From: Escherichia coli
GTDB lineage: Bacteria > Pseudomonadota > Gammaproteobacteria > Enterobacterales > Enterobacteriaceae
Length of the DNA stretch: 64,000 bases
Assembly: GCF_003790525.1 (NCBI RefSeq)
Contig: NZ_CP033635.1
Strand: one strand, 5' to 3'
Part shown: positions 10,157 to 64,000 of the stretch, one piece after another
Layout: each line of letters starts with the position of its first letter
Numbering within the stretch: position 1 is the first letter of the stretch
The notes under the pieces: generated by a model
Databases searched by the model: none
Seen by the model: the letters and a program-made list of their open reading frames with translations, nothing else
Told to the model about the DNA's origin: nothing
Position numbers and translations under genes: made by a program

Positions 10157-10981
10157 ATGATCATCGAAAAAGTCATGAACAATAATTGTGTACAGGCATC
10201 GATGAATGGACAGGAGGTTATCATTTCTGGGCCTGGCGTCGGTTACAACAAAAAATATGGAATGTCGGTCCCTGAGCATCCGGCTAACCGGATTTTTTAT
10301 GTCAGAAATGAACAAAAAAATAAACTCTACAAATTGATTGAACATGTGGATATTGAGTATGTTTTTGTTGCCGAAAAAATAGTGCAATATGCGGAGAACA
10401 ATCTCGAAAAAAATCTCAATCCATCGCTACTATTGATTCTTGCTGATCACATTTCGAATGCAATATCCCGAGTCGCTTCAGGCATACAAATTAATAATGT
10501 TTTCCTTGATGAAATCAAAGCGTTGTACAAAGCAGAGTATGCGATAAGTCGCGATGCATTAACTATCATTAATGAGCAATTCAGCGTTCAACTTCCTGAT
10601 GATGAGATTGGTTTTATAGCATTGCATATTTTAAATAATTATGAAAATTCAGTTGATTATGAATCAGTACGGATTATTGAGTTGTCGCAAATAATCACGG
10701 GGCTTATTGAAGTTGTTTATAACAGAAAGGTGGACAGAAGTTCATTTAATTATTCCAGGTTCATGATACACCTTAAATATTTTTCAAGTCGCGTATTATG
10801 TAATGAAAAGATAAAACAAAAAGATATTGGTGACATCTATGAGCAGTTTCTTGAGAAAGACATCCTGTTACAGCGCGCAATTCATGAAATTGAACGGTAT
10901 CTGTATGCCACTTTTAAATATGAATTAATTTTAGAAGAAAAACTATATCTCTCAATTCGTACCAAAGTATTAATGGACTAA
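10157..10981 (+). CDS. BglG/LicT-family PRD-domain transcription antiterminator
   Basis: 275 aa from ATG 10157 (MIIEKVMNNNCV..., GGAG 7 nt upstream); N-terminal CAT RNA-binding motif KVxNNN and PRD-like segments; the ORF-track start 10100 lies inside the terminator hairpin. Confidence 0.8.
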   Translation: MIIEKVMNNNCVQASMNGQEVIISGPGVGYNKKYGMSVPEHPANRIFYVRNEQKNKLYKLIEHVDIEYVFVAEKIVQYAENNLEKNLNPSLLLILADHISNAISRVASGIQINNVFLDEIKALYKAEYAISRDALTIINEQFSVQLPDDEIGFIALHILNNYENSVDYESVRIIELSQIITGLIEVVYNRKVDRSSFNYSRFMIHLKYFSSRVLCNEKIKQKDIGDIYEQFLEKDILLQRAIHEIERYLYATFKYELILEEKLYLSIRTKVLMD

Positions 10982-11012
10982 TTATATATAACATTTATAT
11001 GAGATAACCCAC

Positions 11013-12593
11013 ATGAAACAAAAGAAAGCCTGGAGTTTTTTTCAGAGCCTGGGAAAGGCATTCATGTATCCCATTGCTCTGCTAAGTGTATGTGGCATGA
11101 TGCTAGGGCTGGGAAGTGGTTTAGCCAGTGATGATATGGCAAAGTTAATTCCATTTCTGGCTATTCCAATAATTAAAACCATACTTGATTTCATTGTTAG
11201 TCTTGGTTTGTTTGCCTTTGTTAATTTACCTGTATTGTTTGCGATAGCGATTCCCTTAGGATTATTAAAAGATAAAGAGGATAAAGCCTATGGTGCTTTT
11301 TCTGGCTTAATTGGTTTTATGGCGATGCATCTGGGAACGAACTTTTATCTTAAACAGCACGACTTATTGGTCGCTGCTGACCAAATGTCGACACATGGGC
11401 AAACCATCATTCTGGGGATCCAGTCCTACAATACCAGCGTGTTAGGGGGAATTGTTGCTGGGTTATTAGTCGCCAGCATGTATAAAAAGATCGTTAATTT
11501 ACGCATTCCTGAATCATTAGGTTTTTATAGCGGCCCACGTCTGGTGCCTATCATTACACTGATTGTGATGAGTGGATTTGGTCTGATCATCCCTTTTATC
11601 TGGCCGCCGTTTTTCAATCTTTTCATGCTCATTGGCCACTGGATTTCAACTTCCGGTCCTGTTGGCTATTTTTTCTATGCAGTCGCCGAACGCGTGACGA
11701 TACCTTTTGGTTTAAATCACCTGGTGACGTCAGTTTTCCGCTTTACCCCCATCGGCGGATCGGCAGTGATCGGCGGCGAAGAGTATTATGGCACCCTGAA
11801 CATGTTTATGGCGTACGTCAAAGAGAATGCGGTCATTCCGCTGGATTTGGCGGGGAAAATGGAACAGGGCAAACTGATGATTCAGTATGGTCTGGCTGGT
11901 GCCGCGCTGGCGATGTATCGCACTGCTCATGCTCAAAACAGAAAAGCTATCAAAGCATTGCTTATTTCCGGGGTGCTTACAGTCATTATTGGCGGCGTCA
12001 GCGAACCGATTGAGTTTCTGTTCTTATTTGTCAGTCCACTGCTGTTTGTCTTCCATGCATTTATGAATGGATTCGCCAACATGGTCTTGCCATATATGGG
12101 CGTGAAGATGGGATTTACTGGCGATCTGATTCAATTTATTAGCTTTGGCGTATTGCGTGGCACAAGAACAGGTTGGCCAATAGCGGTGTGTGTCGAAGTG
12201 GCCTATTTCTTTATTTATTACTTTGTGTTCCGTTGGACTATTCTCAAATTTAACCTGATGACGGTAGGCCGTGAAGAGTCCAGTCCTGTCACGCTGAACG
12301 CTCATGAGGATACGGCTATAGCGGATATCCCAACTCCTGATAAATCAGAGCTGCAAGCGGCGGAGCAGATGGTTAAGGCACTTGGTGGTAAAGAGAATAT
12401 TAAGTCACTGGATAATTGCGTAACTCGTTTACGTTTAACAATCGCAGATATGGGATTGCTTGACGAGGCTGCAATAAAAAGAGCCGGCGGAATTGCGGTT
12501 GTTAAACTTGATCAAAATACCCTACAAGTCATTATCGGTACTAAAGTCATCGCCTTGCGTCGGGATATGGATAACTACATGGGGATATGCTGA
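11013..12593 (+). CDS. PTS glucose/glucoside-family EIICB permease (no EIIA domain)
   Basis: 526 aa polytopic membrane protein with C-terminal EIIB motif NCVTRLRL; similar in architecture to MalX/PtsG-type EIICB. Confidence 0.85.
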   Translation: MKQKKAWSFFQSLGKAFMYPIALLSVCGMMLGLGSGLASDDMAKLIPFLAIPIIKTILDFIVSLGLFAFVNLPVLFAIAIPLGLLKDKEDKAYGAFSGLIGFMAMHLGTNFYLKQHDLLVAADQMSTHGQTIILGIQSYNTSVLGGIVAGLLVASMYKKIVNLRIPESLGFYSGPRLVPIITLIVMSGFGLIIPFIWPPFFNLFMLIGHWISTSGPVGYFFYAVAERVTIPFGLNHLVTSVFRFTPIGGSAVIGGEEYYGTLNMFMAYVKENAVIPLDLAGKMEQGKLMIQYGLAGAALAMYRTAHAQNRKAIKALLISGVLTVIIGGVSEPIEFLFLFVSPLLFVFHAFMNGFANMVLPYMGVKMGFTGDLIQFISFGVLRGTRTGWPIAVCVEVAYFFIYYFVFRWTILKFNLMTVGREESSPVTLNAHEDTAIADIPTPDKSELQAAEQMVKALGGKENIKSLDNCVTRLRLTIADMGLLDEAAIKRAGGIAVVKLDQNTLQVIIGTKVIALRRDMDNYMGIC

Positions 12594-13768
12594 TGGATGT
12601 TTTTAATACTCCTATTTCCCGCAAAGGAACATATTGTACCCAATGGGACTTTTGCGAGGACAGATTTGGTGTAAAAGATGTATTACCATTCTCTATTTCA
12701 GATATGGATCTTCCGATACCAGACGCTATCACCAGAGCATTAAAAAAACGTCTGGAACACCCGATTTTAGGGTACAGCCGTTGGCAGCATGATGACTATC
12801 TGAATGCGATAGTCAATTGGTATCATCAACAATATAAAACTGAAATCAAACCAGAATGGATCACCTATAGCCCAAGCGTGATGTACTCCATTGCTAAAGC
12901 AATAGAGTTATTGACATCGCATGGTGATAATATTCTCGTTTTTACACCTGTCTATAATGCATTTTTTGATATAATTAAACATAGCGAGAGAAATATTCTG
13001 ACAGCCTCTTTGATTATAAAAAATGAGGGGGGCTACGCTATCAATTGGCAAGATTTTGATCTTAAGATTCAAAGCGCAAAGATGGTGTTATTATGTAATC
13101 CTCATAACCCGACAGGAACAGTCTGGTCGGAAGAAGAACTGCATAAAATCGCTGCAAGCTGTACAAGGCATAATGTCTGGTTATGTTCAGATGAAATCCA
13201 TAGTGATTTTGTTTTTAATCGTAGCTTTACATCCGCGCTTAAAATAAAAAAAGAAAAAGTAGTAGTATTTAACTCGATATCGAAAACATTTAATGTTCCT
13301 GCACTAACAGGATCGTATATGATTTCAACTGACGATAATTTTAATCATAAGTTCAGAACGATATCGAGGTATCGCGATTTTGTAAACTCCCCATCAGTAC
13401 TGAATATAATTGCAACTATTATTGCCTATAACGAATGTGAGGGATGGTTAAAGTCATTAAAGGCACATATTGCCTCTAACATTCAATTCACCCAGCAGTA
13501 TCTGAACGAAAACACTCCAGAATTGATCGTAAGGCCAGCTGATGGTTGCTATTTTTCGTGGATAGATTGCTCTGCTATTGGTTATCCCTTTGATGAATTC
13601 TACAGTCGATTAATTCATGAAGGCAAAGTGGGCATTATGGCGGGGAATGTCTATGGAACGGAGGGGGAGGGCTACCTTCGTCTGAACCTGGCCTGCGGTC
13701 GAGAAAAATTATATATGGGGCTTACGCGTCTTGCGAGTGTAATTAAAAATATTAATCAAGGAAAATAA
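12587..13768 (+). CDS. MalY/PatB-family PLP-dependent aminotransferase / C-S beta-lyase
   Basis: 393 aa; N-terminus (TYCTQWDF..LPFSISDMDLP) parallels E. coli MalY (GTWCTQWDY..LPFTISDMDF); overlaps the EIICB stop by 7 nt. Confidence 0.8.
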   Translation: MLMDVFNTPISRKGTYCTQWDFCEDRFGVKDVLPFSISDMDLPIPDAITRALKKRLEHPILGYSRWQHDDYLNAIVNWYHQQYKTEIKPEWITYSPSVMYSIAKAIELLTSHGDNILVFTPVYNAFFDIIKHSERNILTASLIIKNEGGYAINWQDFDLKIQSAKMVLLCNPHNPTGTVWSEEELHKIAASCTRHNVWLCSDEIHSDFVFNRSFTSALKIKKEKVVVFNSISKTFNVPALTGSYMISTDDNFNHKFRTISRYRDFVNSPSVLNIIATIIAYNECEGWLKSLKAHIASNIQFTQQYLNENTPELIVRPADGCYFSWIDCSAIGYPFDEFYSRLIHEGKVGIMAGNVYGTEGEGYLRLNLACGREKLYMGLTRLASVIKNINQGK

Positions 13769-13770
13769 AA

Positions 13771-14367
13771 ATGAACAGCACGGATCTTATCCATCTCATT
13801 AAACATTTTATGCGTAACGAACATAAAGCAGTTGAAGAAGTTATTGATTCCCCCCTTTCGGAGGTCGCAAATTTAATTAAAGTATTACAGTCTTGTCAGG
13901 GGAAAGTTGTTTTTATTGGTGTCGGTAAGTCCGGTATTATTGCCCGAAAACTCGCCGCAACATTTGCCAGCACTGGAACTCCCTCGTTTTTTGTTCACGG
14001 TACGGAAGCGGTACACGGCGACCTTGGAATGGTGGCGAAAGACGATGTTGTTATTCTTATTTCAAACAGTGGTGAGACGGCGGAAATCCTGGCGACACTG
14101 CCTAGTCTGAAAAAAATGGGTAATTATTTGATCTCTTTTACACGCAGTCATCACTCATCGCTTGCGATAAGTTGTGATTTATCCGTTGAAATTCCCGTAA
14201 AAAGTGAGGCGGATAATTTAGGTTTAGCGCCGTCATGCTCATCAACAGTCGTTCTGGTTGTTGGTGATGCGGTGGCGCTTGCGCTCTCCGAATTGAAAAA
14301 GTTTACTCGTGCTGATTTCGGCTTATATCATCCAGGAGGTGCGCTCGGTATTAAAGCAAACTCATAA
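13771..14367 (+). CDS. SIS-domain sugar-phosphate isomerase (single SIS domain, KdsD/GutQ-like)
   Basis: 198 aa with GVGKSGIIARKLAATFASTGTPSFFVH, the SIS phosphosugar-binding motif. Confidence 0.75.
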   Translation: MNSTDLIHLIKHFMRNEHKAVEEVIDSPLSEVANLIKVLQSCQGKVVFIGVGKSGIIARKLAATFASTGTPSFFVHGTEAVHGDLGMVAKDDVVILISNSGETAEILATLPSLKKMGNYLISFTRSHHSSLAISCDLSVEIPVKSEADNLGLAPSCSSTVVLVVGDAVALALSELKKFTRADFGLYHPGGALGIKANS

Positions 14368-14429
14368 TTTCAAAATATAAATACAGTAACCGGTCACGCC
14401 ATCTTTTGGGGTGGCGTTCTTTGAAGTGA

Positions 14430-15386
14430 GTGTCAGCTATGAAAAATGTTCTGGTCACCGTCCCCAGCTTTTCAGCACGCTGTGTTTCCGCCAGCAAGTT
14501 GCTAAGAGAGAATAATTTTAATCTTATTATTAAGAATAATGTGGAGCATCTGCTTAAATCAGAATCCACTGCATTACGAGAATCTATTTGCGCGGTCATC
14601 GCCGGAAAAGATTGTTATCAGGCGGACACGCTATCATTGCTGTCTGGTGTGAAAATAATATCGAGATTCGGGACGGGGATAGACAATATTGATCTTCGTG
14701 CGGCACAGCAATCCGGTATTGTTGTCAATAATGCGGTTGGGATTAATTCAAATGCGGTTGCGGAATTTATCATTGGACTTATCTTCGCGAGCATGAGAAA
14801 TATCCCCGGTAGCTATCATGCGATGCAAAATGGTTATTGGGGCGAGTCGCATGGCTGCGAGTTACAAGGTAAACGTATTGGCCTGCTTGGCTACGGCAAT
14901 ATTGGCAAAACACTGGCGAAAAGGTTATCTGGTTTTGATGTTGAGCTTTTAGCTTTTGACAAACAACCCGATTTCCAGGCCGCAGGCAAAGATGGAGTTC
15001 AGTTCGTATCAATTGAAGATATCTTTATGCAGTCTCATGTCATCATCGTTCTTTTGCCATTTTCTCCGGAGCTGGAGAACTTCATTAGTCATAAATATTT
15101 GTCGATGATGCGCAATGGTGCTCTGATCATCAACGCCGCAAGGGGAAAGTTGCTGGATGAGGGTGCTTTACTTCAGGTAATTGAAGAACGAAATGTTTTT
15201 GCAGCACTGGATGTGTTTAGCTCTGAACCGCTAGCGCAATTTAGCCCATTGCTACATGCCAAGAATATCATTACAACGCCGCATATTGCGGCCGCCACCG
15301 TTGAGTCATACCAGCAAACCGGGATATACGTTGCCCAGTCGATAATTGATTACTTCGCAGGAAGGGAGATAAAAAACGTGCTGTGA
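14430..15386 (+). CDS. D-isomer-specific 2-hydroxyacid dehydrogenase family protein (NAD-binding)
   Basis: 318 aa; Rossmann GxGxxG (LLGYGNIGK) and catalytic-domain motifs typical of the SerA/PdxB/GhrA family. Confidence 0.75.
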   Translation: MSAMKNVLVTVPSFSARCVSASKLLRENNFNLIIKNNVEHLLKSESTALRESICAVIAGKDCYQADTLSLLSGVKIISRFGTGIDNIDLRAAQQSGIVVNNAVGINSNAVAEFIIGLIFASMRNIPGSYHAMQNGYWGESHGCELQGKRIGLLGYGNIGKTLAKRLSGFDVELLAFDKQPDFQAAGKDGVQFVSIEDIFMQSHVIIVLLPFSPELENFISHKYLSMMRNGALIINAARGKLLDEGALLQVIEERNVFAALDVFSSEPLAQFSPLLHAKNIITTPHIAAATVESYQQTGIYVAQSIIDYFAGREIKNVL

Positions 15387-15464: not shown

Positions 15465-15541
<77 letters not shown>

Positions 15542-15575
15542 TCACCGTACTGCTTTTACTTCATCAAATTTTGAT

Positions 15576-15652
<77 letters not shown>

Positions 15653-15685
15653 TCACCGTACTGCTTTACTTCATCAAATTTTAAT

Positions 15686-15762
<77 letters not shown>

Positions 15763-20085: not shown

Positions 20086-20292
20086 AAAAAAAAAGCACCG
20101 CAATTAGGCGGTGCTACATTAATCACTATGGACAGACAGGGTAAATGTACAGGAAGTGAAAAAAGGTAGCTTTGCTACCATGGTCTGAATCGCAGACCAA
20201 TTGCAAACACAACAACACAACATCACAACCGTAAGCCAAAAGTTCACCAGAACACGCATTCCGATAAAACTTTTCGTTCCGGCTCAGGAAGT
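20086..20292 (-). ncRNA. gcvB: GcvB small regulatory RNA
   Basis: Minus-strand sequence starts ACTTCCTGAGCCGGAACG and ends in the hairpin GCACCGCCTAATTGCGGTGC + U-tract; contains the GU-rich region GTTGTGATGTTGTGTTGTTGTGTTTG; divergent from gcvA. Confidence 0.9.
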
Positions 20293-31227: not shown

Positions 31228-33461
<2,234 letters not shown>

Positions 33462-38520: not shown

Positions 38521-38877
38521 GAGTCAGACAACGAAGTGAACATCAGGATGATGACACTTCTGAAGGACACACCAGGATGGTGTTTCAGGGAAAGGCTTCT
38601 GGATGAAGCGAAGAGGATGACGCAGGACGCGTTAAAGGACACCTCCAGGATGGAGAATGAGAACCGGTCAGGATGATTCGGTGGGTCAGGAAGGCCAGGA
38701 ACACTTCAGGATGAAGTATCACATCGGGGTGGTGTGAGCAGGAAGCAATAGTTCAGGATGAACGATTGGTCGCAAGGCCAGAGGAAAAGTTGTCAAGGAT
38801 GAGCAGGGAGCAACAAAAGTAGCTGGAATGCTGCGAAACGAACCGGGAGCACTGTGAATACAGTGCTCCCTTTTTTT
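38521..38877 (+). ncRNA. csrB: CsrB sRNA (CsrA-sequestering RNA)
   Basis: ~357 nt starting GAGUCAGACAACGAAGUGAACAUCAGGAUGAUGACACUUCUG with >15 GGA/CAGGAUG motifs, ending in the hairpin GGGAGCACUGUGAAUACAGUGCUCCC + U7; between syd and yqcC as in K-12. Confidence 0.9.
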
Positions 38878-38922
38878 ATTCCTGCTATCCTTCGCGGCAG
38901 TTTTTCTTATTGAGGTTGCTTT

Positions 38923-49383: not shown

Positions 49384-51618
49384 ATGGTTGCGGTAAGAAG
49401 TGCACATATCAATAAGGCTGGTGAATTTGATCCGGAAAAATGGATCGCAAGTCTGGGTATTACCAGCCAGAAGTCGTGTGAGTGCTTAGCCGAAACCTGG
49501 GCGTATTGTCTGCAACATACGCAGGGGCATCCGGATGCCAGTCTGTTATTGTGGCGTGGTGTTGAGATGGTGGAGATCCTCTCGACATTAAGTATGGACA
49601 TTGACACGCTGCGGGCGGCGCTGCTGTTCCCTCTGGCTGATGCCAACGTAGTCAGCGAAGATGTGCTGCGTGAGAGCGTCGGTAAGTCGGTCGTTAACCT
49701 TATTCACGGCGTGCGTGATATGGCGGCGATCCGCCAGCTGAAAGCGACGCATACCGATTCTGTTTCCTCCGAACAGGTCGATAACGTTCGCCGGATGTTA
49801 TTGGCGATGGTCGATGATTTCCGCTGCGTGGTCATCAAACTGGCAGAGCGTATTGCTCATCTGCGCGAAGTAAAAGACGCGCCGGAAGATGAACGCGTAC
49901 TGGCGGCAAAAGAGTGCACCAATATCTACGCGCCGTTGGCGAACCGTCTTGGGATTGGGCAACTGAAATGGGAGCTGGAAGATTACTGCTTCCGTTATCT
50001 CCACCCGACCGAATACAAACGCATCGCAAAACTGCTGCATGAACGCCGTCTCGACCGCGAACACTATATCGAAGAGTTTGTCGGCCACCTGCGCGCTGAG
50101 ATGAAAGCTGAAGGCGTTAAAGCTGAAGTGTATGGTCGTCCGAAACACATCTACAGCATCTGGCGCAAAATGCAGAAAAAGAACCTCGCCTTCGATGAGC
50201 TGTTTGATGTGCGTGCGGTACGTATTGTCGCCGAGCGTTTACAGGATTGTTATGCCGCACTGGGGATAGTGCACACTCACTATCGCCACCTGCCGGATGA
50301 GTTTGACGATTACGTCGCTAACCCGAAACCAAACGGTTATCAGTCTATTCATACCGTGGTTCTGGGACCAGGTGGCAAAACCGTTGAGATCCAAATCCGC
50401 ACTAAACAGATGCATGAAGATGCAGAGTTGGGTGTTGCTGCGCACTGGAAATATAAAGAGGGCGCGGCAGCTGGCGGCGCACGTTCGGGACATGAAGACC
50501 GGATTGCCTGGCTGCGTAAACTGATTGCGTGGCAGGAAGAGATGGCTGATTCCGGCGAAATGCTCGACGAAGTACGTAGCCAGGTCTTTGACGACCGGGT
50601 GTACGTCTTTACGCCGAAAGGTGATGTCGTTGATTTGCCTGCGGGATCAACACCGCTGGACTTCGCGTACCACATCCACAGTGATGTCGGACACCGCTGC
50701 ATCGGGGCAAAAATTGGCGGGCGCATTGTGCCGTTCACCTACCAGCTGCAGATGGGCGACCAGATTGAAATTATCACCCAGAAACAGCCGAACCCCAGCC
50801 GTGACTGGTTAAACCCAAATCTCGGTTACGTCACAACCAGTCGTGGGCGCTCGAAAATTCACGCCTGGTTCCGTAAACAGGATCGTGACAAAAACATTCT
50901 GGCTGGACGGCAAATCCTTGATGACGAGCTGGAACATCTGGGGATCAGCCTGAAAGAAGCAGAAAAACACCTGCTGCCGCGTTACAACTTCAATGATGTC
51001 GACGAGTTGCTGGCGGCGATTGGTGGCGGGGATATCCGTCTCAATCAGATGGTGAACTTCCTGCAATCGCAATTTAATAAGCCGAGTGCCGAAGAGCAGG
51101 ATGCCGCCGCGCTGAAACAGCTTCAGCAAAAAAGCTACACGCCGCAAAACCGCAGTAAAGATAACGGTCGTGTGGTGGTAGAAGGTGTCGGTAACCTGAT
51201 GCACCACATCGCGCGCTGCTGCCAGCCGATTCCTGGAGATGAGATTGTCGGCTTCATTACCCAGGGACGCGGTATTTCAGTACACCGCGCCGATTGCGAA
51301 CAACTGGCGGAACTGCGCTCCCATGCGCCAGAACGCATTGTTGACGCGGTATGGGGCGAGAGCTACTCCGCCGGATATTCGCTGGTGGTCCGCGTGGTGG
51401 CTAATGATCGTAGTGGGTTGTTACGTGATATCACGACCATTCTCGCCAACGAGAAGGTGAACGTACTTGGCGTTGCCAGCCGTAGCGACACCAAACAGCA
51501 ACTGGCGACCATCGACATGACCATTGAGATTTACAACCTGCAAGTGCTGGGCCGCGTGCTGGGTAAACTCAACCAGGTGCCGGATGTTATCGACGCGCGT
51601 CGGTTGCACGGGAGTTAG
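49384..51618 (+). CDS. relA: GTP pyrophosphokinase, (p)ppGpp synthetase I
   Basis: 744 aa RelA/SpoT family. Confidence 0.95.
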   Translation: MVAVRSAHINKAGEFDPEKWIASLGITSQKSCECLAETWAYCLQHTQGHPDASLLLWRGVEMVEILSTLSMDIDTLRAALLFPLADANVVSEDVLRESVGKSVVNLIHGVRDMAAIRQLKATHTDSVSSEQVDNVRRMLLAMVDDFRCVVIKLAERIAHLREVKDAPEDERVLAAKECTNIYAPLANRLGIGQLKWELEDYCFRYLHPTEYKRIAKLLHERRLDREHYIEEFVGHLRAEMKAEGVKAEVYGRPKHIYSIWRKMQKKNLAFDELFDVRAVRIVAERLQDCYAALGIVHTHYRHLPDEFDDYVANPKPNGYQSIHTVVLGPGGKTVEIQIRTKQMHEDAELGVAAHWKYKEGAAAGGARSGHEDRIAWLRKLIAWQEEMADSGEMLDEVRSQVFDDRVYVFTPKGDVVDLPAGSTPLDFAYHIHSDVGHRCIGAKIGGRIVPFTYQLQMGDQIEIITQKQPNPSRDWLNPNLGYVTTSRGRSKIHAWFRKQDRDKNILAGRQILDDELEHLGISLKEAEKHLLPRYNFNDVDELLAAIGGGDIRLNQMVNFLQSQFNKPSAEEQDAAALKQLQQKSYTPQNRSKDNGRVVVEGVGNLMHHIARCCQPIPGDEIVGFITQGRGISVHRADCEQLAELRSHAPERIVDAVWGESYSAGYSLVVRVVANDRSGLLRDITTILANEKVNVLGVASRSDTKQQLATIDMTIEIYNLQVLGRVLGKLNQVPDVIDARRLHGS

Positions 51619-51634
51619 GCCGAAACTTGTTCGT

Positions 51635-51672
51635 ATCTACAATGTAGATCGATATATACTGTATCTACATAT
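51635..51672. promoter_or_regulatory. mazEF promoter/operator palindromes (atctacaatgtagat; tgtatctacata)
   Basis: Palindromic sequences just upstream of mazE, consistent with the autoregulatory alternating palindrome described for the mazEF promoter. Confidence 0.5.
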
Positions 51673-51695
51673 GATAGCGGTTTGAGGAAAGGGTT

Positions 51696-51944
51696 ATGAT
51701 CCACAGTAGCGTAAAGCGTTGGGGAAATTCTCCTGCAGTGCGGATCCCGGCTACGTTAATGCAGGCGCTCAATCTGAATATTGATGATGAAGTGAAGATT
51801 GACCTGGTGGATGGAAAATTAATTATTGAGCCAGTGCGTAAAGAGCCCGTATTTACGCTTGCTGAACTGGTCAACGACATCACGCCGGAAAACCTCCACG
51901 AGAATATCGACTGGGGGGAGCCGAAAGATAAGGAAGTCTGGTAA
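51696..51944 (+). CDS. mazE: Antitoxin MazE
   Basis: 82 aa AbrB/SpoVT-like ([19 protein letters not shown]). Confidence 0.95.
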
Positions 51945-52279
51945 TGGTAAGCCGATACGTACCCGATACGGGCGATCTGATTTGGGTTGATTTTGACCCG
52001 ACAAAAGGTAGCGAGCAAGCCGGACATCGTCCGGCTGTTGTCCTGAGTCCGTTCATGTACAACAACAAAACAGGTATGTGTCTGTGTGTTCCTTGTACAA
52101 CGCAATCAAAAGGATATCCGTTCGAAGTTGTTCTATCCGGTCAGGAACGTGATGGCGTAGCGTTAGCTGATCAGGTAAAAAGTATCGCCTGGCGGGCAAG
52201 AGGAGCAACGAAGAAAGGAACAGTTGCCCCAGAGGAATTACAACTCATTAAAGCCAAAATTAACGTGCTGATTGGGTAG
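51944..52279 (+). CDS. mazF: Toxin MazF (ACA-specific mRNA interferase)
   Basis: 111 aa PemK/MazF fold, overlaps the mazE stop. Confidence 0.95.
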   Translation: MVSRYVPDTGDLIWVDFDPTKGSEQAGHRPAVVLSPFMYNNKTGMCLCVPCTTQSKGYPFEVVLSGQERDGVALADQVKSIAWRARGATKKGTVAPEELQLIKAKINVLIG

Positions 52280-52350
52280 GTGTTACTAACTCACTTCTAT
52301 TCTGGTCACAGGTTTCCACCTGACAGACCCGCAATTTTCAGGACAATTCA

Positions 52351-53142
52351 ATGAATCAAATCGACCGTTTGCTCACTATTATGCAGCGCCTGCGCGATCC
52401 GGAAAACGGCTGCCCGTGGGATAAAGAGCAGACATTTGCCACCATTGCGCCTTACACCCTTGAAGAAACCTACGAGGTGCTGGACGCCATCGCCCGTGAA
52501 GATTTTGACGATCTGCGCGGTGAACTGGGCGATCTGCTGTTCCAGGTGGTGTTTTACGCACAAATGGCTCAGGAAGAAGGGCGCTTTGACTTTAATGATA
52601 TTTGCGCTGCTATTAGCGATAAATTAGAGCGTCGCCATCCGCATGTTTTTGCTGACAGTTCTGCCGAAAACAGTAGTGAAGTGCTCGCCCGTTGGGAGCA
52701 AATCAAAACCGAAGAACGCGCGCAGAAAGCACAGCATTCGGCGCTGGATGATATTCCTCGTAGTTTACCGGCTTTAATGCGTGCGCAAAAAATCCAGAAA
52801 CGTTGCGCCAACGTTGGCTTCGACTGGACGACGCTTGGTCCGGTAGTCGATAAAGTCTACGAAGAGATCGACGAGGTGATGTACGAGGCGCAGCAGGCTG
52901 TTGTCGACCAGGCTAAACTGGAGGAGGAAATGGGTGACCTGCTGTTTGCCACGGTCAATCTGGCTCGTCATTTAGGGACAAAAGCGGAAATCGCATTGCA
53001 AAAAGCGAACGAAAAATTCGAGCGTCGTTTTCGCGAAGTGGAGCGTATTGTTGCCGCGCGTGGACTGGAAATGACAGGTGTTGACCTCGAAACAATGGAA
53101 GAAGTCTGGCAACAGGTAAAACGGCAGGAAATTGATCTCTAA
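52351..53142 (+). CDS. mazG: Nucleoside triphosphate pyrophosphohydrolase MazG
   Basis: 263 aa tandem MazG domains. Confidence 0.9.
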   Translation: MNQIDRLLTIMQRLRDPENGCPWDKEQTFATIAPYTLEETYEVLDAIAREDFDDLRGELGDLLFQVVFYAQMAQEEGRFDFNDICAAISDKLERRHPHVFADSSAENSSEVLARWEQIKTEERAQKAQHSALDDIPRSLPALMRAQKIQKRCANVGFDWTTLGPVVDKVYEEIDEVMYEAQQAVVDQAKLEEEMGDLLFATVNLARHLGTKAEIALQKANEKFERRFREVERIVAARGLEMTGVDLETMEEVWQQVKRQEIDL

Positions 53143-56433: not shown

Positions 56434-57859
56434 TAATGCCAGTCAGTTAAGCAACTGACTGGCTCTTTTTCGGGGCTGTGGGGTATTTCCAGGGCCTCTC
56501 CTTTACCACTCTCGGGAAGGCCCTTTCCCTTCTTGTCGGTAATTTCACAAGTTGTCCCATACTTGCAAGATCGCGCATCAGCTCCGGTATACGTCCCGGT
56601 GAAGCGCCCTGCAATGTCATCAGCATTCTCATCACCATTCCACATGATTCTGAGAAACTCAGTTGATTCGGCCAGTAACCTTTCAGATATTCCGCCATTT
56701 TAATCATCTGATATCTCACCAGATTATAAGCCAGTAAGACACCCCACAGCTCTTGCTCCACAAGCTCCGGTTTTTTACTTCTCAGCGTCAGCCTGCTCAG
56801 TTGCATCGTCTGTTTTATCTCCCTGTATCCCAGTTCGATTTCCCAGCGATGACTGTACAGATCCGCCATTTCTCCTCCGGGGAAGCGCATGGCGTCCGTC
56901 ATCGACGTCAGCAGATGGCAGACTTTTCCTTTGCGCGTCACGGTCAGCAGGCGGGCTGTCACTTCATTTCCCAGTCCCGGCCACTTTTTTCGTGCCTGCG
57001 GGCTGGTTTTCAGCTTCACCAGATGATCGCCTTTACCCAGTTTTCTGATCTCTTCATATTGCGCTCCCTTTCTGAGAGGTATCATCCAGTGGCGGTGTTC
57101 TCCCGCCAGGCTCCAGGCATTTAACAGTCCCAGTGAGTAATAACCTTTATCCATTAACGTCAGAGTGTTATCGCCGGTTTGTTCTATAAGTTGCTCAGCA
57201 AGCTCATTTTCGCTGTTCTTCATCGTGCCGAAGGCTGCAGCCGTCAGCAGATGGCTGGTCAGTTCCATCTGGCAGACCATTTTGACCTGCGGGTAGAGCG
57301 CCGGGTTCCCGGCATGTGTCTGGCGGGGGAAGGCTGCATCGTTCTCTGGTGTATCCGGTGTGCGCCAGAACACACCATCGATGGCCAGCAGGGTCAGGCC
57401 GCACCAGTGCGGATGCGGCGTGGCGTTATGCCAGAGCTGCGCTGTTTTCGTGAACACGCGGCGGACAGCCTCACTTCCCAGGCGCTGGCGGGCCTGAATA
57501 ACGGCACTGGGGGCAACGAAGGGGCGATTGCCCGGCAGCATGATGTCCAGGCGATTCACAATCTGGTGAAGAGGTTCTTTACGCTCAAGCGCCATGCCAA
57601 CAATACACCAGACCATCATTTCGAGGGGAAGACGGCGCTTGCGTAGCGTTACAGTACCTGATTCGGCAAGGCAACGAGAGATGAGTTCGGGGTCGAGGTA
57701 ATCCCCCAGAGAAGTCAGTGGGTTACGCAGAGAATCGTAACGGGATACCAGATCAAGAGCCTGTCCAATGTGCATAAAAAAATCCGGAAACAAGTGAGCG
57801 TTTCCGGATTCTTACACAGCCACTGGATCGGTCAACTGATCCTTAACTGATCGGCATTA
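56434..57859 (-). mobile_element. IS4 insertion sequence (1426 bp) with imperfect 18-bp terminal inverted repeats
   Basis: Ends taatgccagtcagttaag ... cttaactgatcggcatta (16/18 complementary); encodes an IS4-family DDE transposase; flanked by a 14-bp direct repeat. Confidence 0.9.
56447..57775 (-). CDS. insG: IS4 transposase
   Basis: 442 aa from [31 protein letters not shown], which I recognise as the IS4 transposase N-terminus. Confidence 0.9.
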
Positions 57860-57891: not shown

Positions 57892-58764
57892 TTACCAGCG
57901 GCCAGACGCGCCGCCACCGCCAGAAGAACCGCCACCTCCGTTAAATCCGCCGCCAGTTGAGCCGCCACCAGAACCGCCGCTGTCTGAATGATAACTTCTA
58001 CCTGATGCTTTTTTCTGTGGGACACATAACCAGGTAAAGACCATAATGATGGTGAAAGCAAAAAAGAAGGAAAATACAGCAATGGAAAAAGTTTGATCGG
58101 AGAACAGGAATAAATCTATAAGATAGACTGTTGAAATACAAACACTGCTTTTAAATGCCCGACAAAAATTATTGCCTTGATGAAAAAACCAGAAAGGGAA
58201 GAACATCACTGCAAATACCCAAAAAATAGCAAAGTAGTAATGATCACTGGAAGACGCTGATTCACTTTCTGAAGGATTAGACGAATATTGGTGTTGTGAA
58301 GTGAGTTGGTTATTCAAAGCGATTATAGCTAATTCTAATCCCTTAGCTAATTTTTGTTTTTTAAAGGCGGGTATCATGATGCTACGGATGATATTGCCAG
58401 CCAGAGCATCGGTTACCTTTTCTTCCAGCCCATAACCTACCTGGATGCGGACAGTACGATCCGACCAGGCAACAATGATCAGTATCCCATCATTACGTTT
58501 GGCATCTCCTAAACGCCAATTGTCAAAAACTCTTGTAGCATATTGTTCAATAGAATCGTCTCCGGTGGATGGCACTATTAATACAGCGACCTGTGCCCGT
58601 GTTTTTTGTGTAATATCCTGCAGCTGTTGTGTTAGTGATTGTTGTTCAGACGTGCTTAAGGTACCAGTAATATCGGTCACCTGTTGGCGCAGCTCCGGCA
58701 CAGCAATTTGCTGGGCAAGCACAGGAAGGCACCATAAAGTGAGTAGAAAAAGGATTATACGCAT
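57892..58764 (-). CDS. ygcG: TPM-domain membrane protein, YgcG-like (signal peptide, TPM domain, TM segments, Gly/Ser-rich C-terminal tail ending GRW)
   Basis: 290 aa from ATG 58764 ([17 protein letters not shown]); length as recalled for K-12 YgcG; the ORF-track start 4 codons upstream is a TTG and is rejected. Confidence 0.75.
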
Positions 58765-58769
58765 AACGA

Positions 58770-59918
58770 TCACCAACGGTCGGATGAACCGCCGCCTCCT
58801 GAAGAACCGCCGCCACCGCGGAAAGAATTTTTCGACGAAGAGCGAGAATGAGCATTACGATTCCCCGTTTTCCTGTTGCTTTTTTCTCCTGACCCCAGCT
58901 TAAGATTGCCAGTAAATTTGGCCACAATGATCAGCAGAACGATGCCAGCAATGGTTATTGGGCCGATAAAATGATCAATTAACCCAATAATTGTTGAGAT
59001 GAATGCTATATCTTTATTACTGGCGAATACCAGGCACCATCCCACAACAATTATCAGCAGCACGACAAACAATGAGTTTCGTTCGGATTGAGAAACCTGC
59101 TGAGTCGTCTTTTGTTTTTTCACTTTAGCGTTTTTATTTTTTGGGGCCAGCATCATAGGAAATACGCGATACATATGAAAAATTACCGCGAGACGCTGCC
59201 AGCAGGTTGCTGCGAAAAATAAACTAAAACAAACGAGCGATACCCGCCGAATGATGACATCATCCTGAAAGAAGAAAAACCAGACCATAGGAGTAATCAT
59301 CGATATCATCCATATGCCAGGCCCGGGACGGCTGGTAAATCGCCAGAGGACAACGATGGCAACGATCATCAGTAATGTCCAGGCAAGACATGGCAGCGAG
59401 CGTTGCGGATTAGCAAACAGATGATTGGCTAAAGCATCCAAAGGGCTAAGATTCGCTTTTATATAGGTAAACTGTGCGATGCCTTCAATTCCCTGCGTTA
59501 ACCCGGAGAAGAGATTATTTTTTTTGAATTCCGGTTGCATATGGTAATGAACAATTTGCGCAGCTTGTTCCGGTGGCAGCATCTCTTTCAGTCCATGCCC
59601 AATCTTCATTGACGCCAGCCCTTCCGGCCAAACGACGAGAATTAAGATACCTTCGCCGTACCGCTTCTCTCCAACGGGTTTCCAGTGATATAACCCGTAG
59701 CTCTGAGAGGCTGCAAGTTTAATGTTTTTGCCCCCTGTGGTCGGCGTAACCAACACGGCCACCTGGAAGTGGTTTTGCTGCTCGAGAGTCTGTAATTGTT
59801 GATTTAAAGCAGTTTGTTCTTCTGTCGTTAATGTCCCGGTTAAGTCAGTTACTGAAGGCAATTGTTCAGCGAATGCCTGGAAACCATATAGCATCAGAAG
59901 TAAGAGAAAAATACGCAT
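58770..59918 (-). CDS. TPM-domain membrane protein, paralogue 2 (extended multi-TM region, Gly-rich tail ending DRW)
   Basis: 382 aa; signal peptide [20 protein letters not shown]-like core ([20 protein letters not shown]), tail [15 protein letters not shown]; AAGGA RBS; 5 nt upstream of ygcG-like gene. Confidence 0.75.
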
Positions 59919-59932
59919 TTCAATTCCTTTTG

Positions 59933-60826
59933 TTACCAGCGCCCGGAGGCGCCACCGCCGCCAGATGAACCGCCGCCGCCGCGGAAATTGTCATTGTCGA
60001 ATGAAGAGGATGACGATGACGAATAGTGGGAGGAAGAATTACTTCTTGTATGGCGTGATGGCTGGTTGGTATTACGCATCGAATCCCGAACCTTTTTGCC
60101 GAAGGGAGTAAAAGCGATGGCGACAGCCAGGAACGGTGTGGCGAAGCAGAGTAATGTTGCGAGCACTCCCCAGCTTCCGCTGAAACCTGCTATAGGTAAA
60201 ACAAAGGCCAGTACAATAGCTGCGAAGCAAATCAGTCCCAGCGTTTTGATATATCCTCTGGCAGAAATAAACGTCAGTATTATCGCCCAGACTAACAAAG
60301 CCCACCAACCGCTAAAGGGCAAAGGGTGATCGGTCGGTGTTATCGTTGCTGAATTATTCCCCGTCAGGCGACTTTCAATATCGTTGATCCCCTTTTGTAA
60401 ACCACCAGCCAGGTCGCCTTTTTTAAATGCCGGAATAATACTGTTGCGAATAATTTTCCCGGACTGTACATCCGTAATAATACCTTCCAGTCCGTAACCG
60501 ATTTCAATACGCACGGTATGATCCTGCCAGGCGACTAACAGTAGAACGCCATCATCGCGGTCTTTATCACCCGGTTTCCAGCTATCGAATACCCGCGTTG
60601 CGTACTGCTCGATGGTTTCATCGCCTGTTGTATCAACCACTAACACGACCAACTGTGCGTGGTTTTTTTGCGTCAGGGCTTTAATCTGGTTGGTCAGGGT
60701 GTTTACTTCGCTGTTTGTTAATGTGCCGGTTAAGTCATTCACATACTTGGGGGATTCAGGTACTGGAATTTGTGTGGCAAACACAGATGAACAGAAGAAA
60801 GCCATAAGGAAGATAAAATTTCGCAT
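59933..60826 (-). CDS. TPM-domain membrane protein, paralogue 1 (Ser-rich + Gly-rich tail ending GRW)
   Basis: 297 aa from ATG 60826 (MRNFIFLMAFFCSSVFA); TPM-like core (LTGTL..QLVVLVV..IEIGYGLEGI); tail [15 protein letters not shown]; 13 nt after the lemA stop. Confidence 0.75.
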   Translation of the reverse strand: MRNFIFLMAFFCSSVFATQIPVPESPKYVNDLTGTLTNSEVNTLTNQIKALTQKNHAQLVVLVVDTTGDETIEQYATRVFDSWKPGDKDRDDGVLLLVAWQDHTVRIEIGYGLEGIITDVQSGKIIRNSIIPAFKKGDLAGGLQKGINDIESRLTGNNSATITPTDHPLPFSGWWALLVWAIILTFISARGYIKTLGLICFAAIVLAFVLPIAGFSGSWGVLATLLCFATPFLAVAIAFTPFGKKVRDSMRNTNQPSRHTRSNSSSHYSSSSSSSFDNDNFRGGGGSSGGGGASGRW

Positions 60827-60839
60827 AGAACTTCCCCGC

Positions 60840-61442
60840 TTAATGCGCATTAGCATTCTGGCTAAAATCTATTGTTGGGGCTTTACTTACTGCGGTGACA
60901 TCATCCGGCAAATAATTTTTCTTTGGTGTGTAATCCATGACCTTTGCGGTTAATACAGCGGGGAATTTGCGGATAGTGACATTATATTGTTCAATGGCTT
61001 TAATATATCTTCCTCGCGCAACGGCAATTCTATTTTCACTTCCTTCGAGCTGTACCATTAAGTTTTGATAGAGTTCCTGAGCTTTTAACTCAGGGTAACG
61101 TTCACTAATTATCGTTAACTGACCGAGAGTGCGAGACACCTGCGCCTGGGCTTGTTGCCAGGCTTGTAATTTTTGCGCATCTCCCGGAGCTTGCTGAAGA
61201 TCGCTACTGGCGCGATTAGCCTGGCTACGTGCCAATGTTACGGCTTCCAGTACCTCTTGTTCATGGCTAGAATAACCTTTAATACTGGCGACAAGATTAG
61301 GAATAAGATCGGCGCGACGTTGATATTGATTCAATACCTCAGACCAGGAGGCGTTAACCTGCTCATCATAGGTTTGAATATCGTTATATCCACAGCCTGA
61401 TAAATTGACAATAAATATAATTACGATGAATATCCTGAGCAT
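60840..61442 (-). CDS. LemA-family protein (probable lipoprotein, lipobox LSGC)
   Basis: 200 aa; N-terminal hydrophobic segment with Cys at position 17 in an LSGC lipobox; coiled-coil-rich LemA-like body; first gene of the 4-gene minus-strand cluster. Confidence 0.7.
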   Translation of the reverse strand: MLRIFIVIIFIVNLSGCGYNDIQTYDEQVNASWSEVLNQYQRRADLIPNLVASIKGYSSHEQEVLEAVTLARSQANRASSDLQQAPGDAQKLQAWQQAQAQVSRTLGQLTIISERYPELKAQELYQNLMVQLEGSENRIAVARGRYIKAIEQYNVTIRKFPAVLTAKVMDYTPKKNYLPDDVTAVSKAPTIDFSQNANAH

Positions 61443-61614
61443 GTCTATGTCCCTTTTAATTAATTCCTTAAAACATAATACGCCGCTTCATTTTATTCTT
61501 TATGATCTCATCCACTTTTTGCCTTAAACCTGCCTGTAACAGAATGTTAATAAGACATGATTGTTGTGGCAGGATCTGCAATAATTAACAATTATCCACT
61601 TCACAGAGAATGCT

Positions 61615-62286
61615 ATGCAGTACCCGATTAACGAGATGTTCCAGACCCTGCAAGGTGAGGGTTACTTTACCGGCGTCCCCGCCATTTTTATTCGTTTACA
61701 GGGATGCCCGGTTGGCTGTGCCTGGTGCGACACCAAACACACCTGGGAAAAGCTTGAGGATCGGGAAGTCTCCCTTTTCAGCATTCTGGCGAAGACCAAA
61801 GAGAGTGATAAGTGGGGGGCGGCGAGCAGTGAAGATTTGCTGGCTGTCATTGGTCGGCAGGGATATACCGCGCGGCATGTGGTGATTACGGGTGGTGAGC
61901 CTTGCATTCATGATTTGCTGCCACTGACTGACCTGCTCGAAAAGAACGGTTTTAGCTGCCAGATCGAAACCAGCGGTACTCATGAAGTACGCTGCACGCC
62001 GAATACCTGGGTTACCGTATCGCCAAAGCTGAACATGCGCGGCGGCTATGAAGTGTTGTCACAGGCACTGGAGCGAGCCAACGAAATCAAGCATCCAGTG
62101 GGACGCGTACGTGATATTGAAGCACTGGATGAACTACTGGCAACGCTGACCGATGATAAACCGCGAGTCATTGCACTCCAGCCGATTAGCCAAAAGGATG
62201 ATGCCACACGTTTGTGCATTGAAACCTGCATTGCGCGTAATTGGCGTTTGTCGATGCAAACACATAAATATCTAAATATTGCCTGA
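61615..62286 (+). CDS. queE: 7-carboxy-7-deazaguanine synthase (radical SAM)
   Basis: 223 aa; CxxxCxxC-type motif CPVGCAWCDT; divergent from lemA. Confidence 0.9.
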   Translation: MQYPINEMFQTLQGEGYFTGVPAIFIRLQGCPVGCAWCDTKHTWEKLEDREVSLFSILAKTKESDKWGAASSEDLLAVIGRQGYTARHVVITGGEPCIHDLLPLTDLLEKNGFSCQIETSGTHEVRCTPNTWVTVSPKLNMRGGYEVLSQALERANEIKHPVGRVRDIEALDELLATLTDDKPRVIALQPISQKDDATRLCIETCIARNWRLSMQTHKYLNIA

Positions 62287-62371: not shown

Positions 62372-63379
62372 TTATCGGTAGCGTTTTTGTAGACTGGCAG
62401 GAAGATAACGCTGTAATGGGGATGGCGTTTCACCTTCAATCAGTTGCGAAATAAGTTCAAAGCAGTGAAAAGCAAGTTGGCGATTATCCTGTTGTATTGT
62501 GTCGATTCTTACCGAAAGTGAATCATACAAGTAATGATCATCAAAACTCGCCAGGTGGATTTTACTGTCGAGTAAATTATATTGGCTCATATAGCGCAGA
62601 ACGCCTTCCAGTAATCCACAAGCGGCAGTGAATAAGGCTTTAGGGGGACGTCCTAAACGAGCGCATAGCGCGGCAAACATTTCATAGCCTGAGCTCGGAT
62701 GATAATTACCGTGAATAATCCATTCAGGTTGTAGCGTTACTCCGGCTTGCTGCAAGCCTTGTGTAAATCCTTCCAGTCGATCGCGAGTCGGTGACAAACG
62801 GGGTTGTCCGCCCAGAAAATAGAATTCATCCGGGTGACTCCGTGCAATATCTGCCACCAGAGCGGCGGTGGGAGAAACAGAGTCAGTAATGACCAATGGC
62901 AATGTGCTGCCGTTCATGTGGCGATCGAACAACACAACAGGTAATTGCTCGCTAAGTTTTTGATAGTCATTATCATGCAGCATACTGGATGCGACGATTA
63001 ACCCATCAACCTGGCGGGCAATCATATTGTTCACCACCATTGTTTCCTGTGAAGGATTTTCATCAGTACAGGATATGAGGAGTTGGACTCCCGCTTCCCG
63101 ACACAATGTTTCCAGTTCATGGGAAAATACTGCAAATCCGTAGTTAGTGATTTCAGGAACGACGAGACCAATGGTGTGACTGCGGTTGTCCCGTAATGAG
63201 CGGGCATGAATGCTGGGCTGATAATGCTGCTGTTGGGCAATACTCAGCACACGCTCACGCGTTTCCTGCGCAACACGTAACTCTTTGCCACGACCATTGA
63301 GAACCAGACTGGCGGTTGCTTTCGACACTCCCGCCAGTTCAGCAATGTCTTTAATAGTAACGCGTTTGGTTTTTCTCAC
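62372..63379 (-). CDS. LacI-family transcriptional repressor, sucrose-operon type (CscR/ScrR-like)
   Basis: 335 aa; N-terminal [26 protein letters not shown] resembles Cra/ScrR-type LacI regulators; immediately downstream of a GH32 hydrolase gene in the same direction. Confidence 0.7.
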
Positions 63380-63404
63380 GACGAGGATCCGTAATTCAAA
63401 ACCC

Positions 63405-64000
63405 TCATTCTACCATGCAGGCGCGTAGCGACCAGTAGTGTAACGTGACGTCAGACTCGCCCTGTAATATCAGCGAAGCTGGATGATGGGGAAAATAACG
63501 ATTGCTCATTACGCCTTCGCCATTATTGATGAATATCTCTATGCTGGAACTGTCACAGAGAATCTTCAGTGACGTTACGCTTCCTCGCCAGTAACGAGTT
63601 AGTTTCTCTTGCCCTGCAAGGCTTTTCCTCTGTAGTTGAATACCATCGTCATTAAGATGCAGTGCCAGTGCGTTGCCAAAATTCAGATGTAGCTCGCCTG
63701 ATGGAATGATGTCCATTTCCAGACGTTCAATTGCGACAGGCGGCGCATGATCCGCTTTTCCTTGCCAGAAGTGTTCAGCTTCACGCAGTTGCGCGAGTTC
63801 CCTGATTGGCATCTGAAATAATTTTCCCTTCTGGAATGAGAGTTCGCGAAAACAGGTCATTTGATGCTGCCAATGATGCTTTCTGGTTGGTTGCAACATC
63901 TCTTCGCCATCAGGAACCCCCATCCAGCCGACCAGTAATCGTCGCCCGTCCGGGGCTTCCATCGTCTGTGGTGCATAGAATTCAAATCCCGCATCCAGCT
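63405..64000 (-). CDS. Glycoside hydrolase family 32 (sucrose-6-phosphate hydrolase/invertase-like), C-terminal part; gene continues past the window edge
   Basis: Reading frame stays open to the window edge (..[27 protein letters not shown]..); C-terminal region resembles the beta-sandwich domain of sucrose hydrolases. Confidence 0.6.

Follow-up and report, generated by a model that had tools for sequence, protein, structure and literature searches.

Does the DNA between relA and mazG in this Escherichia coli chromosome hold an intact toxin-antitoxin operon of the kind known from K-12, and is that operon, as the first-pass annotation had it, core to the species? Our analysis of a 64,000-nucleotide stretch, referred to here as the window, indicates that the locus is almost certainly the E. 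coli mazEF (chpA) operon, a chromosomal type II toxin-antitoxin module, in its SMS-3-5 allele, intact and presumably functional. The locus is already known and thoroughly studied, and the copy in the window is an ordinary allele of mazEF. When the window was compared with NC_010498.1 (E. coli SMS-3-5, 2982287–3046286, reverse strand), only four mismatches were found in 64,000 positions, at 31762, 32055, 32056 and 57956.

The mazEF operon and its products

Direct reading of positions 51300–52700, together with the open reading frame (ORF) listing, placed the end of relA (744 aa) at 51618, so that 51619 is the first intergenic base past the relA stop codon, and the final base of the mazF stop codon at 52279. 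The coding features and the extent of the cassette are as follows.

49384–51618, + strand: relA, the upstream flank, GTP diphosphokinase (ORF listing, Pfam, annotation)
51619–52317, + strand: whole mazEF cassette, 699 bp (junctions by comparison with two mazEF-less loci, L002 and L003)
51684–51693, + strand: mazE ribosome-binding region GAGGAAAGGG, ending 2 nt 5' of the ATG (direct reading; the same in K-12)
51696–51944, + strand: mazE, antitoxin, 82 aa (ORF, PDB identity, PF04014, NF007312)
51944–52279, + strand: mazF, toxin, 111 aa, ACA-specific endoribonuclease (ORF, PDB identity, PF02452, NF007386)
52351–53142, + strand: mazG, the downstream flank, 263 aa, nucleoside triphosphate pyrophosphohydrolase (Pfam MazG, 134.7 bits)

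The relA-mazE and mazF-mazG spacers are 77 nt and 71 nt long, respectively, and pyrG lies 3' of mazG. This is the position expected of the chromosomal E. coli MazEF, and the gene order, antitoxin followed by toxin on the + strand in overlapping frames, is that of MazEF systems; the identity and context first assigned to the pair, downstream of relA and upstream of mazG, are therefore confirmed. The overlap, previously put at about 1 nt, comprises exactly one base, which is common to the mazE stop codon TAA (51942–51944) and the mazF ATG (51944–51946) in the junction TAATG (CTGGTAATGGTAA). Both frames are open over their full length, with start, stop and ribosome-binding sequences all in place, and the frameshift or truncation that would have overturned the first reading was looked for and is absent. 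RefSeq annotates mazE and mazF at exactly these positions in NC_010498.1, without a pseudogene flag, and the exact MazF protein was found in a barA-rlmD-relA-mazE-mazF-mazG-pyrG-eno context in all eight of the assemblies shown. A search for terminator-like sites on the + strand of the relA-mazE and mazF-mazG spacers found none, which is consistent with the reported co-transcription of mazEF with relA (PMC7167474).

Comparison of the two proteins with those of K-12 left little doubt about their identity. MazE was identical at 82 of 82 residues to the crystallised K-12 protein (PDB 1mvf, 1ub4) and MazF at 110 of 111 residues to K-12 MazF (PDB 3nfc, 5ck9, 1ub4), in agreement with the earlier description of the pair as not novel. 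MazE matched both the AbrB/MazE/SpoVT DNA-binding domain family PF04014 (52.9 bits; cut-off 24.7) and the NCBIfam equivalog NF007312 (196.2 bits; cut-off 113), which identifies it as the antitoxin, while MazF was identified as the toxin by its matches to the PemK/MazF family PF02452 (85 bits; cut-off 23.1) and to the endoribonuclease MazF equivalog NF007386 (226.4 bits; cut-off 120). At the nucleotide level mazE carries five changes relative to K-12, all of them synonymous, and mazF six, one of which, ATG to ACG at 51969, alters the protein and produces M9T, the sole amino-acid change in MazF. A single amino-acid change among 11 nucleotide differences across the two genes indicates purifying selection.

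The residues on which activity is expected to depend are also preserved. The translation of mazF retains Glu 24, Arg 29 and Thr 52, the second of which aligns with Arg 25 of the Bacillus subtilis homologue by BLASTP. Arg 29 is described as the general acid/base and Thr 52 as a stabilising residue, at second hand, in PMC8887465, and an E24A mutant of MazF is inactive (PMC5888573). The DNA-contacting residues of MazE, Trp 9, Asn 11 and Arg 16 (PMC4333400), are those of K-12, as follows from the full identity of the two MazE proteins. The alignment to K-12 and the inspection of catalytic residues proposed as a check on the first-pass annotation thus both support it.

To determine how common the single MazF substitution is, we counted alleles among complete E. 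coli genomes using 55-mers centred on the variant base. As each 28-base megablast seed word must include the variant base, only genomes with the same allele can match. The Thr 9 query matched 496 complete genomes, among them that of the type strain, ATCC 11775, and the Met 9 query matched 3922. Since 496 complete genomes including ATCC 11775 match, Thr 9 is a normal, tolerated minority allele.

Several other features of the window were observed in passing. An IS4 transposase gene (56447–57793, − strand) adjoins eno in the SMS-3-5 annotation, and the mismatch at 57956 lies just beyond it. A block at 10157–15386 has a GC content of 39–40%, versus about 52% elsewhere, and lies beside three tandem tRNA-Met genes (15468–15762); it is annotated with a PRD-domain regulator, a PTS EIIC component, a MalY/PatB-family protein, a KpsF/GutQ-type isomerase and a phosphoglycerate dehydrogenase, and is probably an islet for sugar utilisation that varies between strains and was inserted next to the tRNA genes. 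On the − strand, 58178–61728 contains a LemA-family gene and three TPM-domain genes at 44–46% GC, and the TPM-domain gene at 60155–60826 is annotated as a truncated pseudogene. The genes at 62372–64000, a LacI-family regulator and a sucrose-6-phosphate hydrolase gene at the window end, look like csc-type sucrose utilisation; K-12 is not known to have csc-type sucrose-utilisation genes. Full-length small RNA matches were obtained for CsrB (38521–38880, + strand; 383 bits) and GcvB (20087–20292, − strand; 199 bits). CsrB and barA both lie within the window, and in K-12 CsrB is controlled by the two-component system of barA. Whether mazEF is the only defence or stress-type module recognisable here, as was first suggested, is a matter of definition: relA, barA/CsrB and recBD are also within the window, and neither MazE nor MazF nor MazG has a PADLOC match.

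Operator, antisense RNA and ACA sites

The first-pass annotation had pointed to a palindromic operator. To place it, we aligned the 77-nt relA-mazE spacer with the published 50-nt 'cab' oligonucleotide of K-12 and searched it for repeats, which gave the following features.

51630–51679, + strand: mazEF promoter/operator, matching the published 'cab' oligonucleotide (47 of the first 49 positions identical to K-12 'cab'; PMC4333400)
51633–51651: MazE-dimer site c (published 'cab' oligonucleotide)
51635–51670: alternating palindrome with three arms (repeat search; arms identical to K-12)
51649–51662: MazE-dimer site a (published 'cab' oligonucleotide)
51650, + strand: rare operator variant between sites c and a, C here versus T in K-12 and ATCC 11775 (alignments, 55-mer count)
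51654–51672: MazE-dimer site b (published 'cab' oligonucleotide)
51585–51984, − strand: region homologous to the K-12 antisense RNA aMEF (ameF, b4844) (K-12 annotation coordinates transferred via alignment)

The palindrome consists of a perfect 7-nt inverted repeat, ATCTACA (51635–41) and TGTAGAT (51643–49), and a perfect 8-nt inverted repeat, ATGTAGAT (51642–49) and ATCTACAT (51663–70), which reuses the middle arm, so that this arm is able to base-pair with the arm on either side of it. A 9-nt direct repeat, GTATCTACA, is present in two copies starting at 51633 and 51661, and the ATATAT core of site a lies at 51652–57. In 5000 dinucleotide-preserving shuffles of the 77-nt spacer, an inverted repeat of at least 8 nt arose 178 times and a direct repeat of at least 9 nt 22 times; both together arose in only 2 of 5000 shuffles, indicating that the operator pattern is beyond chance and bearing out the palindromic operator that had been noted. 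Since the arms and the ATATAT core are those of K-12, the spacer contains the autoregulatory operator with its sites c, a and b.

Within the first 49 positions of 'cab' the window differs from K-12 at two bases, T at 51630 and C at 51650. The C at 51650 lies within the oligonucleotides published for both site c and site a and makes an ATCGAT palindrome between the two sites. It is rare: when a 55-mer with this base at its centre was compared with 5426 complete E. coli genomes, only 24 matched. Nothing else in the mazEF locus is even mildly unusual. A simple sigma-70 scan picked out no strong promoter in the operator; it returned a single weak match whose first hexamer starts at 51671 and whose second ends at 51700, running into the mazE start.

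The region homologous to aMEF runs from within mazF codon 14, across the whole of mazE and the operator, to a point 34 nt inside relA. It is about 98% identical to K-12, with 9 substitutions in 400 nt, and three further differences, all synonymous, lie in the 75-bp stretch that precedes the aMEF start (52021, 52033 and 52051). In K-12, aMEF stimulates MazE and MazF synthesis from a weak, non-canonical promoter (PMC8749433), and, the region being conserved, aMEF may be expressed in the strain of the window as well. No Rfam family matched in or near the mazEF cassette. An antisense ORF of 146 aa (52105 to 51665, − strand), which starts upstream of the aMEF start and is also open in K-12, is probably no gene; it carries four amino-acid changes versus one in the sense frames.

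The mRNA contains two ACA sites in mazE and nine in mazF. The published count for K-12 is the same, and there MazF was demonstrated to cleave the mRNA that encodes it (PMC5888573).

Distribution of mazEF in E. coli

A query of 801 nt spanning the locus was compared with 5426 complete E. coli genomes. A full-length mazEF match was obtained in 4415 of them (81%), while in about 1010 (about 19%) the match was confined to the two ends of the query, in relA and mazG. Thus mazEF is not a core gene of E. coli, and the contrary statement in the first-pass annotation must be withdrawn. A review has likewise assigned toxin-antitoxin systems to the accessory genome, citing UTI89, which lacks mazEF and in which relA-mazG is an undisturbed operon (PMC7167474).

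In two annotated mazEF-less examples relA is followed directly by mazG, and the spacer that separates them is as follows.

L002 3060–3121 and L003 4060–4121: 62-nt relA-mazG spacer of mazEF-less E. coli, in place of the 699-bp cassette at window 51619–52317

The sequence common to these loci and the window stops at the relA stop codon and picks up again at 52318 with ACCTGACAGACCCGC; a promoter-like site before mazG (52320–52347) lies mostly within sequence that the mazEF-less strains have in common with the window. A hairpin of 12 bp (GCTGGATATGGC/GCCGTATCCAGC) forms in the 62-nt spacer and is followed, a few bases further on, by a short run of T, an arrangement that looks like a relA terminator. 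The two loci differ in their relA stop codons (TAG in one, TAA in the other) and in their flanks, suggesting that the mazEF-less state may occur on more than one genetic background. When the 3'-terminal 277 nt of relA and the 5'-terminal 246 nt of mazG were compared between two mazEF-less and three mazEF-carrying genomes, 1–9 differences were found, too few for clades to be drawn; mazG of SK1144 was out of register in this comparison because the gene is annotated as frameshifted.

The cassette was on a plasmid at none of the 5428 places where it occurs in complete E. coli genomes, and the phage collection contained no match to it. The plasmid collection contained only distant relatives, with 65–69% nucleotide identity over the mazF part, in Klebsiella, Providencia and Proteus, mostly on conjugative plasmids. 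A lone 97% hit in that collection was to a record of 4.8 Mb that is evidently chromosomal and misfiled. mazE and mazF differ from their K-12 counterparts by 2.0% and 1.8%, respectively, much as the flanking relA (2.9%) and mazG (2.1%) do. The divergence of mazE and mazF is almost entirely synonymous, and this pattern indicates that lineages with mazEF have long inherited it vertically, under purifying selection. Exact scans for two operator patterns in a collection of species-representative genomes gave zero matches, but were uninformative, as ATCC 11775, the GTDB species representative of E. coli, has both patterns.

Mechanism, relatives and role of the operon

The mechanism we propose takes its steps from work on the K-12 proteins (PMC1626106, PMC4333400, PMC5888573), and takes gene integrity, protein identity, operator, ACA count, context and distribution from the present analysis. 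mazE and mazF would be co-transcribed from a promoter within the 77-nt relA-mazE spacer, read-through from relA would probably transcribe them as well, and the TAATG overlap would couple their translation. Given the near-identity of the proteins to those of K-12, we infer that MazF cleaves single-stranded RNA specifically at ACA and is neutralised by MazE. By analogy, MazF would act as a dimer, with Arg 29 serving as general acid/base and Thr 52 stabilising the reaction, and the disordered C-terminal tails of one MazE dimer would be threaded onto two MazF dimers, blocking both. The N-terminal domain of MazE, aided by MazF, would bind sites c, a and b and so repress the operon. K-12 MazE, to which the MazE of the window is identical, is reported to be unstable via ClpAP/Lon and the toxin to be stable (PMC1626106; PMC8749433); if degradation by Clp and Lon proteases applies here too, any block in expression would be expected to free MazF, which may also cut its own mRNA. 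Antisense aMEF, which tunes expression in K-12, may add a further layer.

The closest known system is MazE-MazF of K-12 (ChpAI-ChpAK, b2783-b2782; PDB 1UB4, 1MVF, 3NFC, 5CK9), which occupies the same relA-mazE-mazF-mazG-pyrG locus and has the same 1-nt overlap, three-site operator with alternating palindrome, and 2 + 9 ACA sites. The window differs from it at 16 positions across the 699-bp cassette, 15 substitutions and one indel, the latter being one extra G after the mazF stop codon in the window. The E. coli chromosomal paralogue ChpS-ChpB (ChpBI-ChpBK) also pairs an AbrB/MazE-type antitoxin with a PemK/MazF-type toxin under the same operon logic, but it lies at a different genomic location, and the proteins of the window fell well below the cut-offs of the ChpS and ChpB equivalog models (34.6 versus 101 and 55.4 versus 129, respectively). 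The plasmid systems Kis-Kid and PemI-PemK (R1, R100) share the antitoxin-toxin organisation and a homologous toxin fold; MazF matched Kid (PDB 1m1f) with E = 7.8e-9 and Klebsiella MazF (PDB 7d28) with E = 4.8e-27. Unlike these systems and the plasmid MazEF of Klebsiella, Providencia and Proteus, which lie on mostly conjugative plasmids and serve plasmid maintenance, mazEF of the window is chromosomal wherever it occurs in complete E. coli genomes, and it is only distantly related to the plasmid copies.

The physiological role of mazEF is disputed, with reversible growth arrest, programmed death, phage defence and a selfish element all under discussion (PMC7167474; preprint 10.1101/2023.02.01.526697). 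It is possible, and we entertain the idea tentatively, that the genes are intact yet without host function, forming a selfish, once-mobile addiction cassette that sits in the relA-mazG spacer and is kept because its loss is costly. This has been argued in a review in which the undisturbed relA-mazG operon of UTI89 figures (PMC7167474), and it fits both the roughly 1010 genomes with a hairpin spacer in place of the cassette and the distant relatives on mostly conjugative plasmids. The lack of any plasmid location or phage match, and a divergence from K-12 that resembles the flanks and is almost all synonymous, argue instead for long vertical descent under purifying selection. As the proposal is about biological role rather than molecular mechanism, it is compatible with our best explanation, an intact chromosomal mazEF operon. 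That mazEF serves mainly in anti-phage abortive infection or RNA-phage defence seems unlikely to us. Deletion of mazEF is reported to raise P1 infection loads, as cited in PMC7167474, and a preprint describes cells as becoming more susceptible to the RNA phages MS2 and Qbeta, together with under-representation of ACA in RNA-phage genomes (10.1101/2023.02.01.526697), but this evidence comes from K-12 only, the effects are modest, and nothing in the window bears on the role. Moreover, mazEF lies between housekeeping genes, outside any defence island, and no family of PADLOC-DB v2 (5027 models) matches MazE, MazF or MazG at E ≤ 0.001; since no model matches, the 'defence' label for mazEF rests on few papers, one of them a preprint.

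Two further readings concern the allele rather than its role. We consider it quite improbable that the SMS-3-5 allele behaves unlike that of K-12, with M9T, C at 51650 or both altering toxicity, neutralisation or the repression set-point. The one substitution in MazF and the rarity and placement of the operator base, inside the site c and site a oligonucleotides in only 24 genomes, would suit such a difference, and C at 51650 also turns the TTGATA of K-12, which is −35-like by our own reading and corresponds to no mapped promoter element, into TCGATA. Thr 9 is nevertheless tolerated in the 496 genomes that have it, residue 9 borders on the conserved block without being part of it, with BLASTP aligning MazF to its B. 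subtilis homologue from residue 10 onwards, and neither the palindrome arms nor the ATATAT core, by which the MazE sites are defined, has changed. The idea that mazEF is a decayed or inactive remnant, a pseudogene, is one to which we give practically no credence: no supporting point was found for it, and it is contradicted by full-length frames with their start, stop and ribosome-binding sequences, by intact key residues, by the synonymous nature of 10 of the 11 nucleotide changes from K-12, and by a RefSeq annotation without a pseudogene flag.

For users of SMS-3-5 or its relatives, these results mean that the strain has the Thr 9 allele of MazF together with a rare single-base operator variant. 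There is a slim chance that C at 51650, possibly with M9T, shifts the repression set-point of mazEF or its promoter strength in the SMS-3-5 lineage; if so, it would be a natural regulatory variant of a model toxin-antitoxin system. That mazEF is missing from about 19% of complete E. coli genomes speaks for toxin-antitoxin pairs being accessory even where they are chromosomal and lie inside housekeeping operons.
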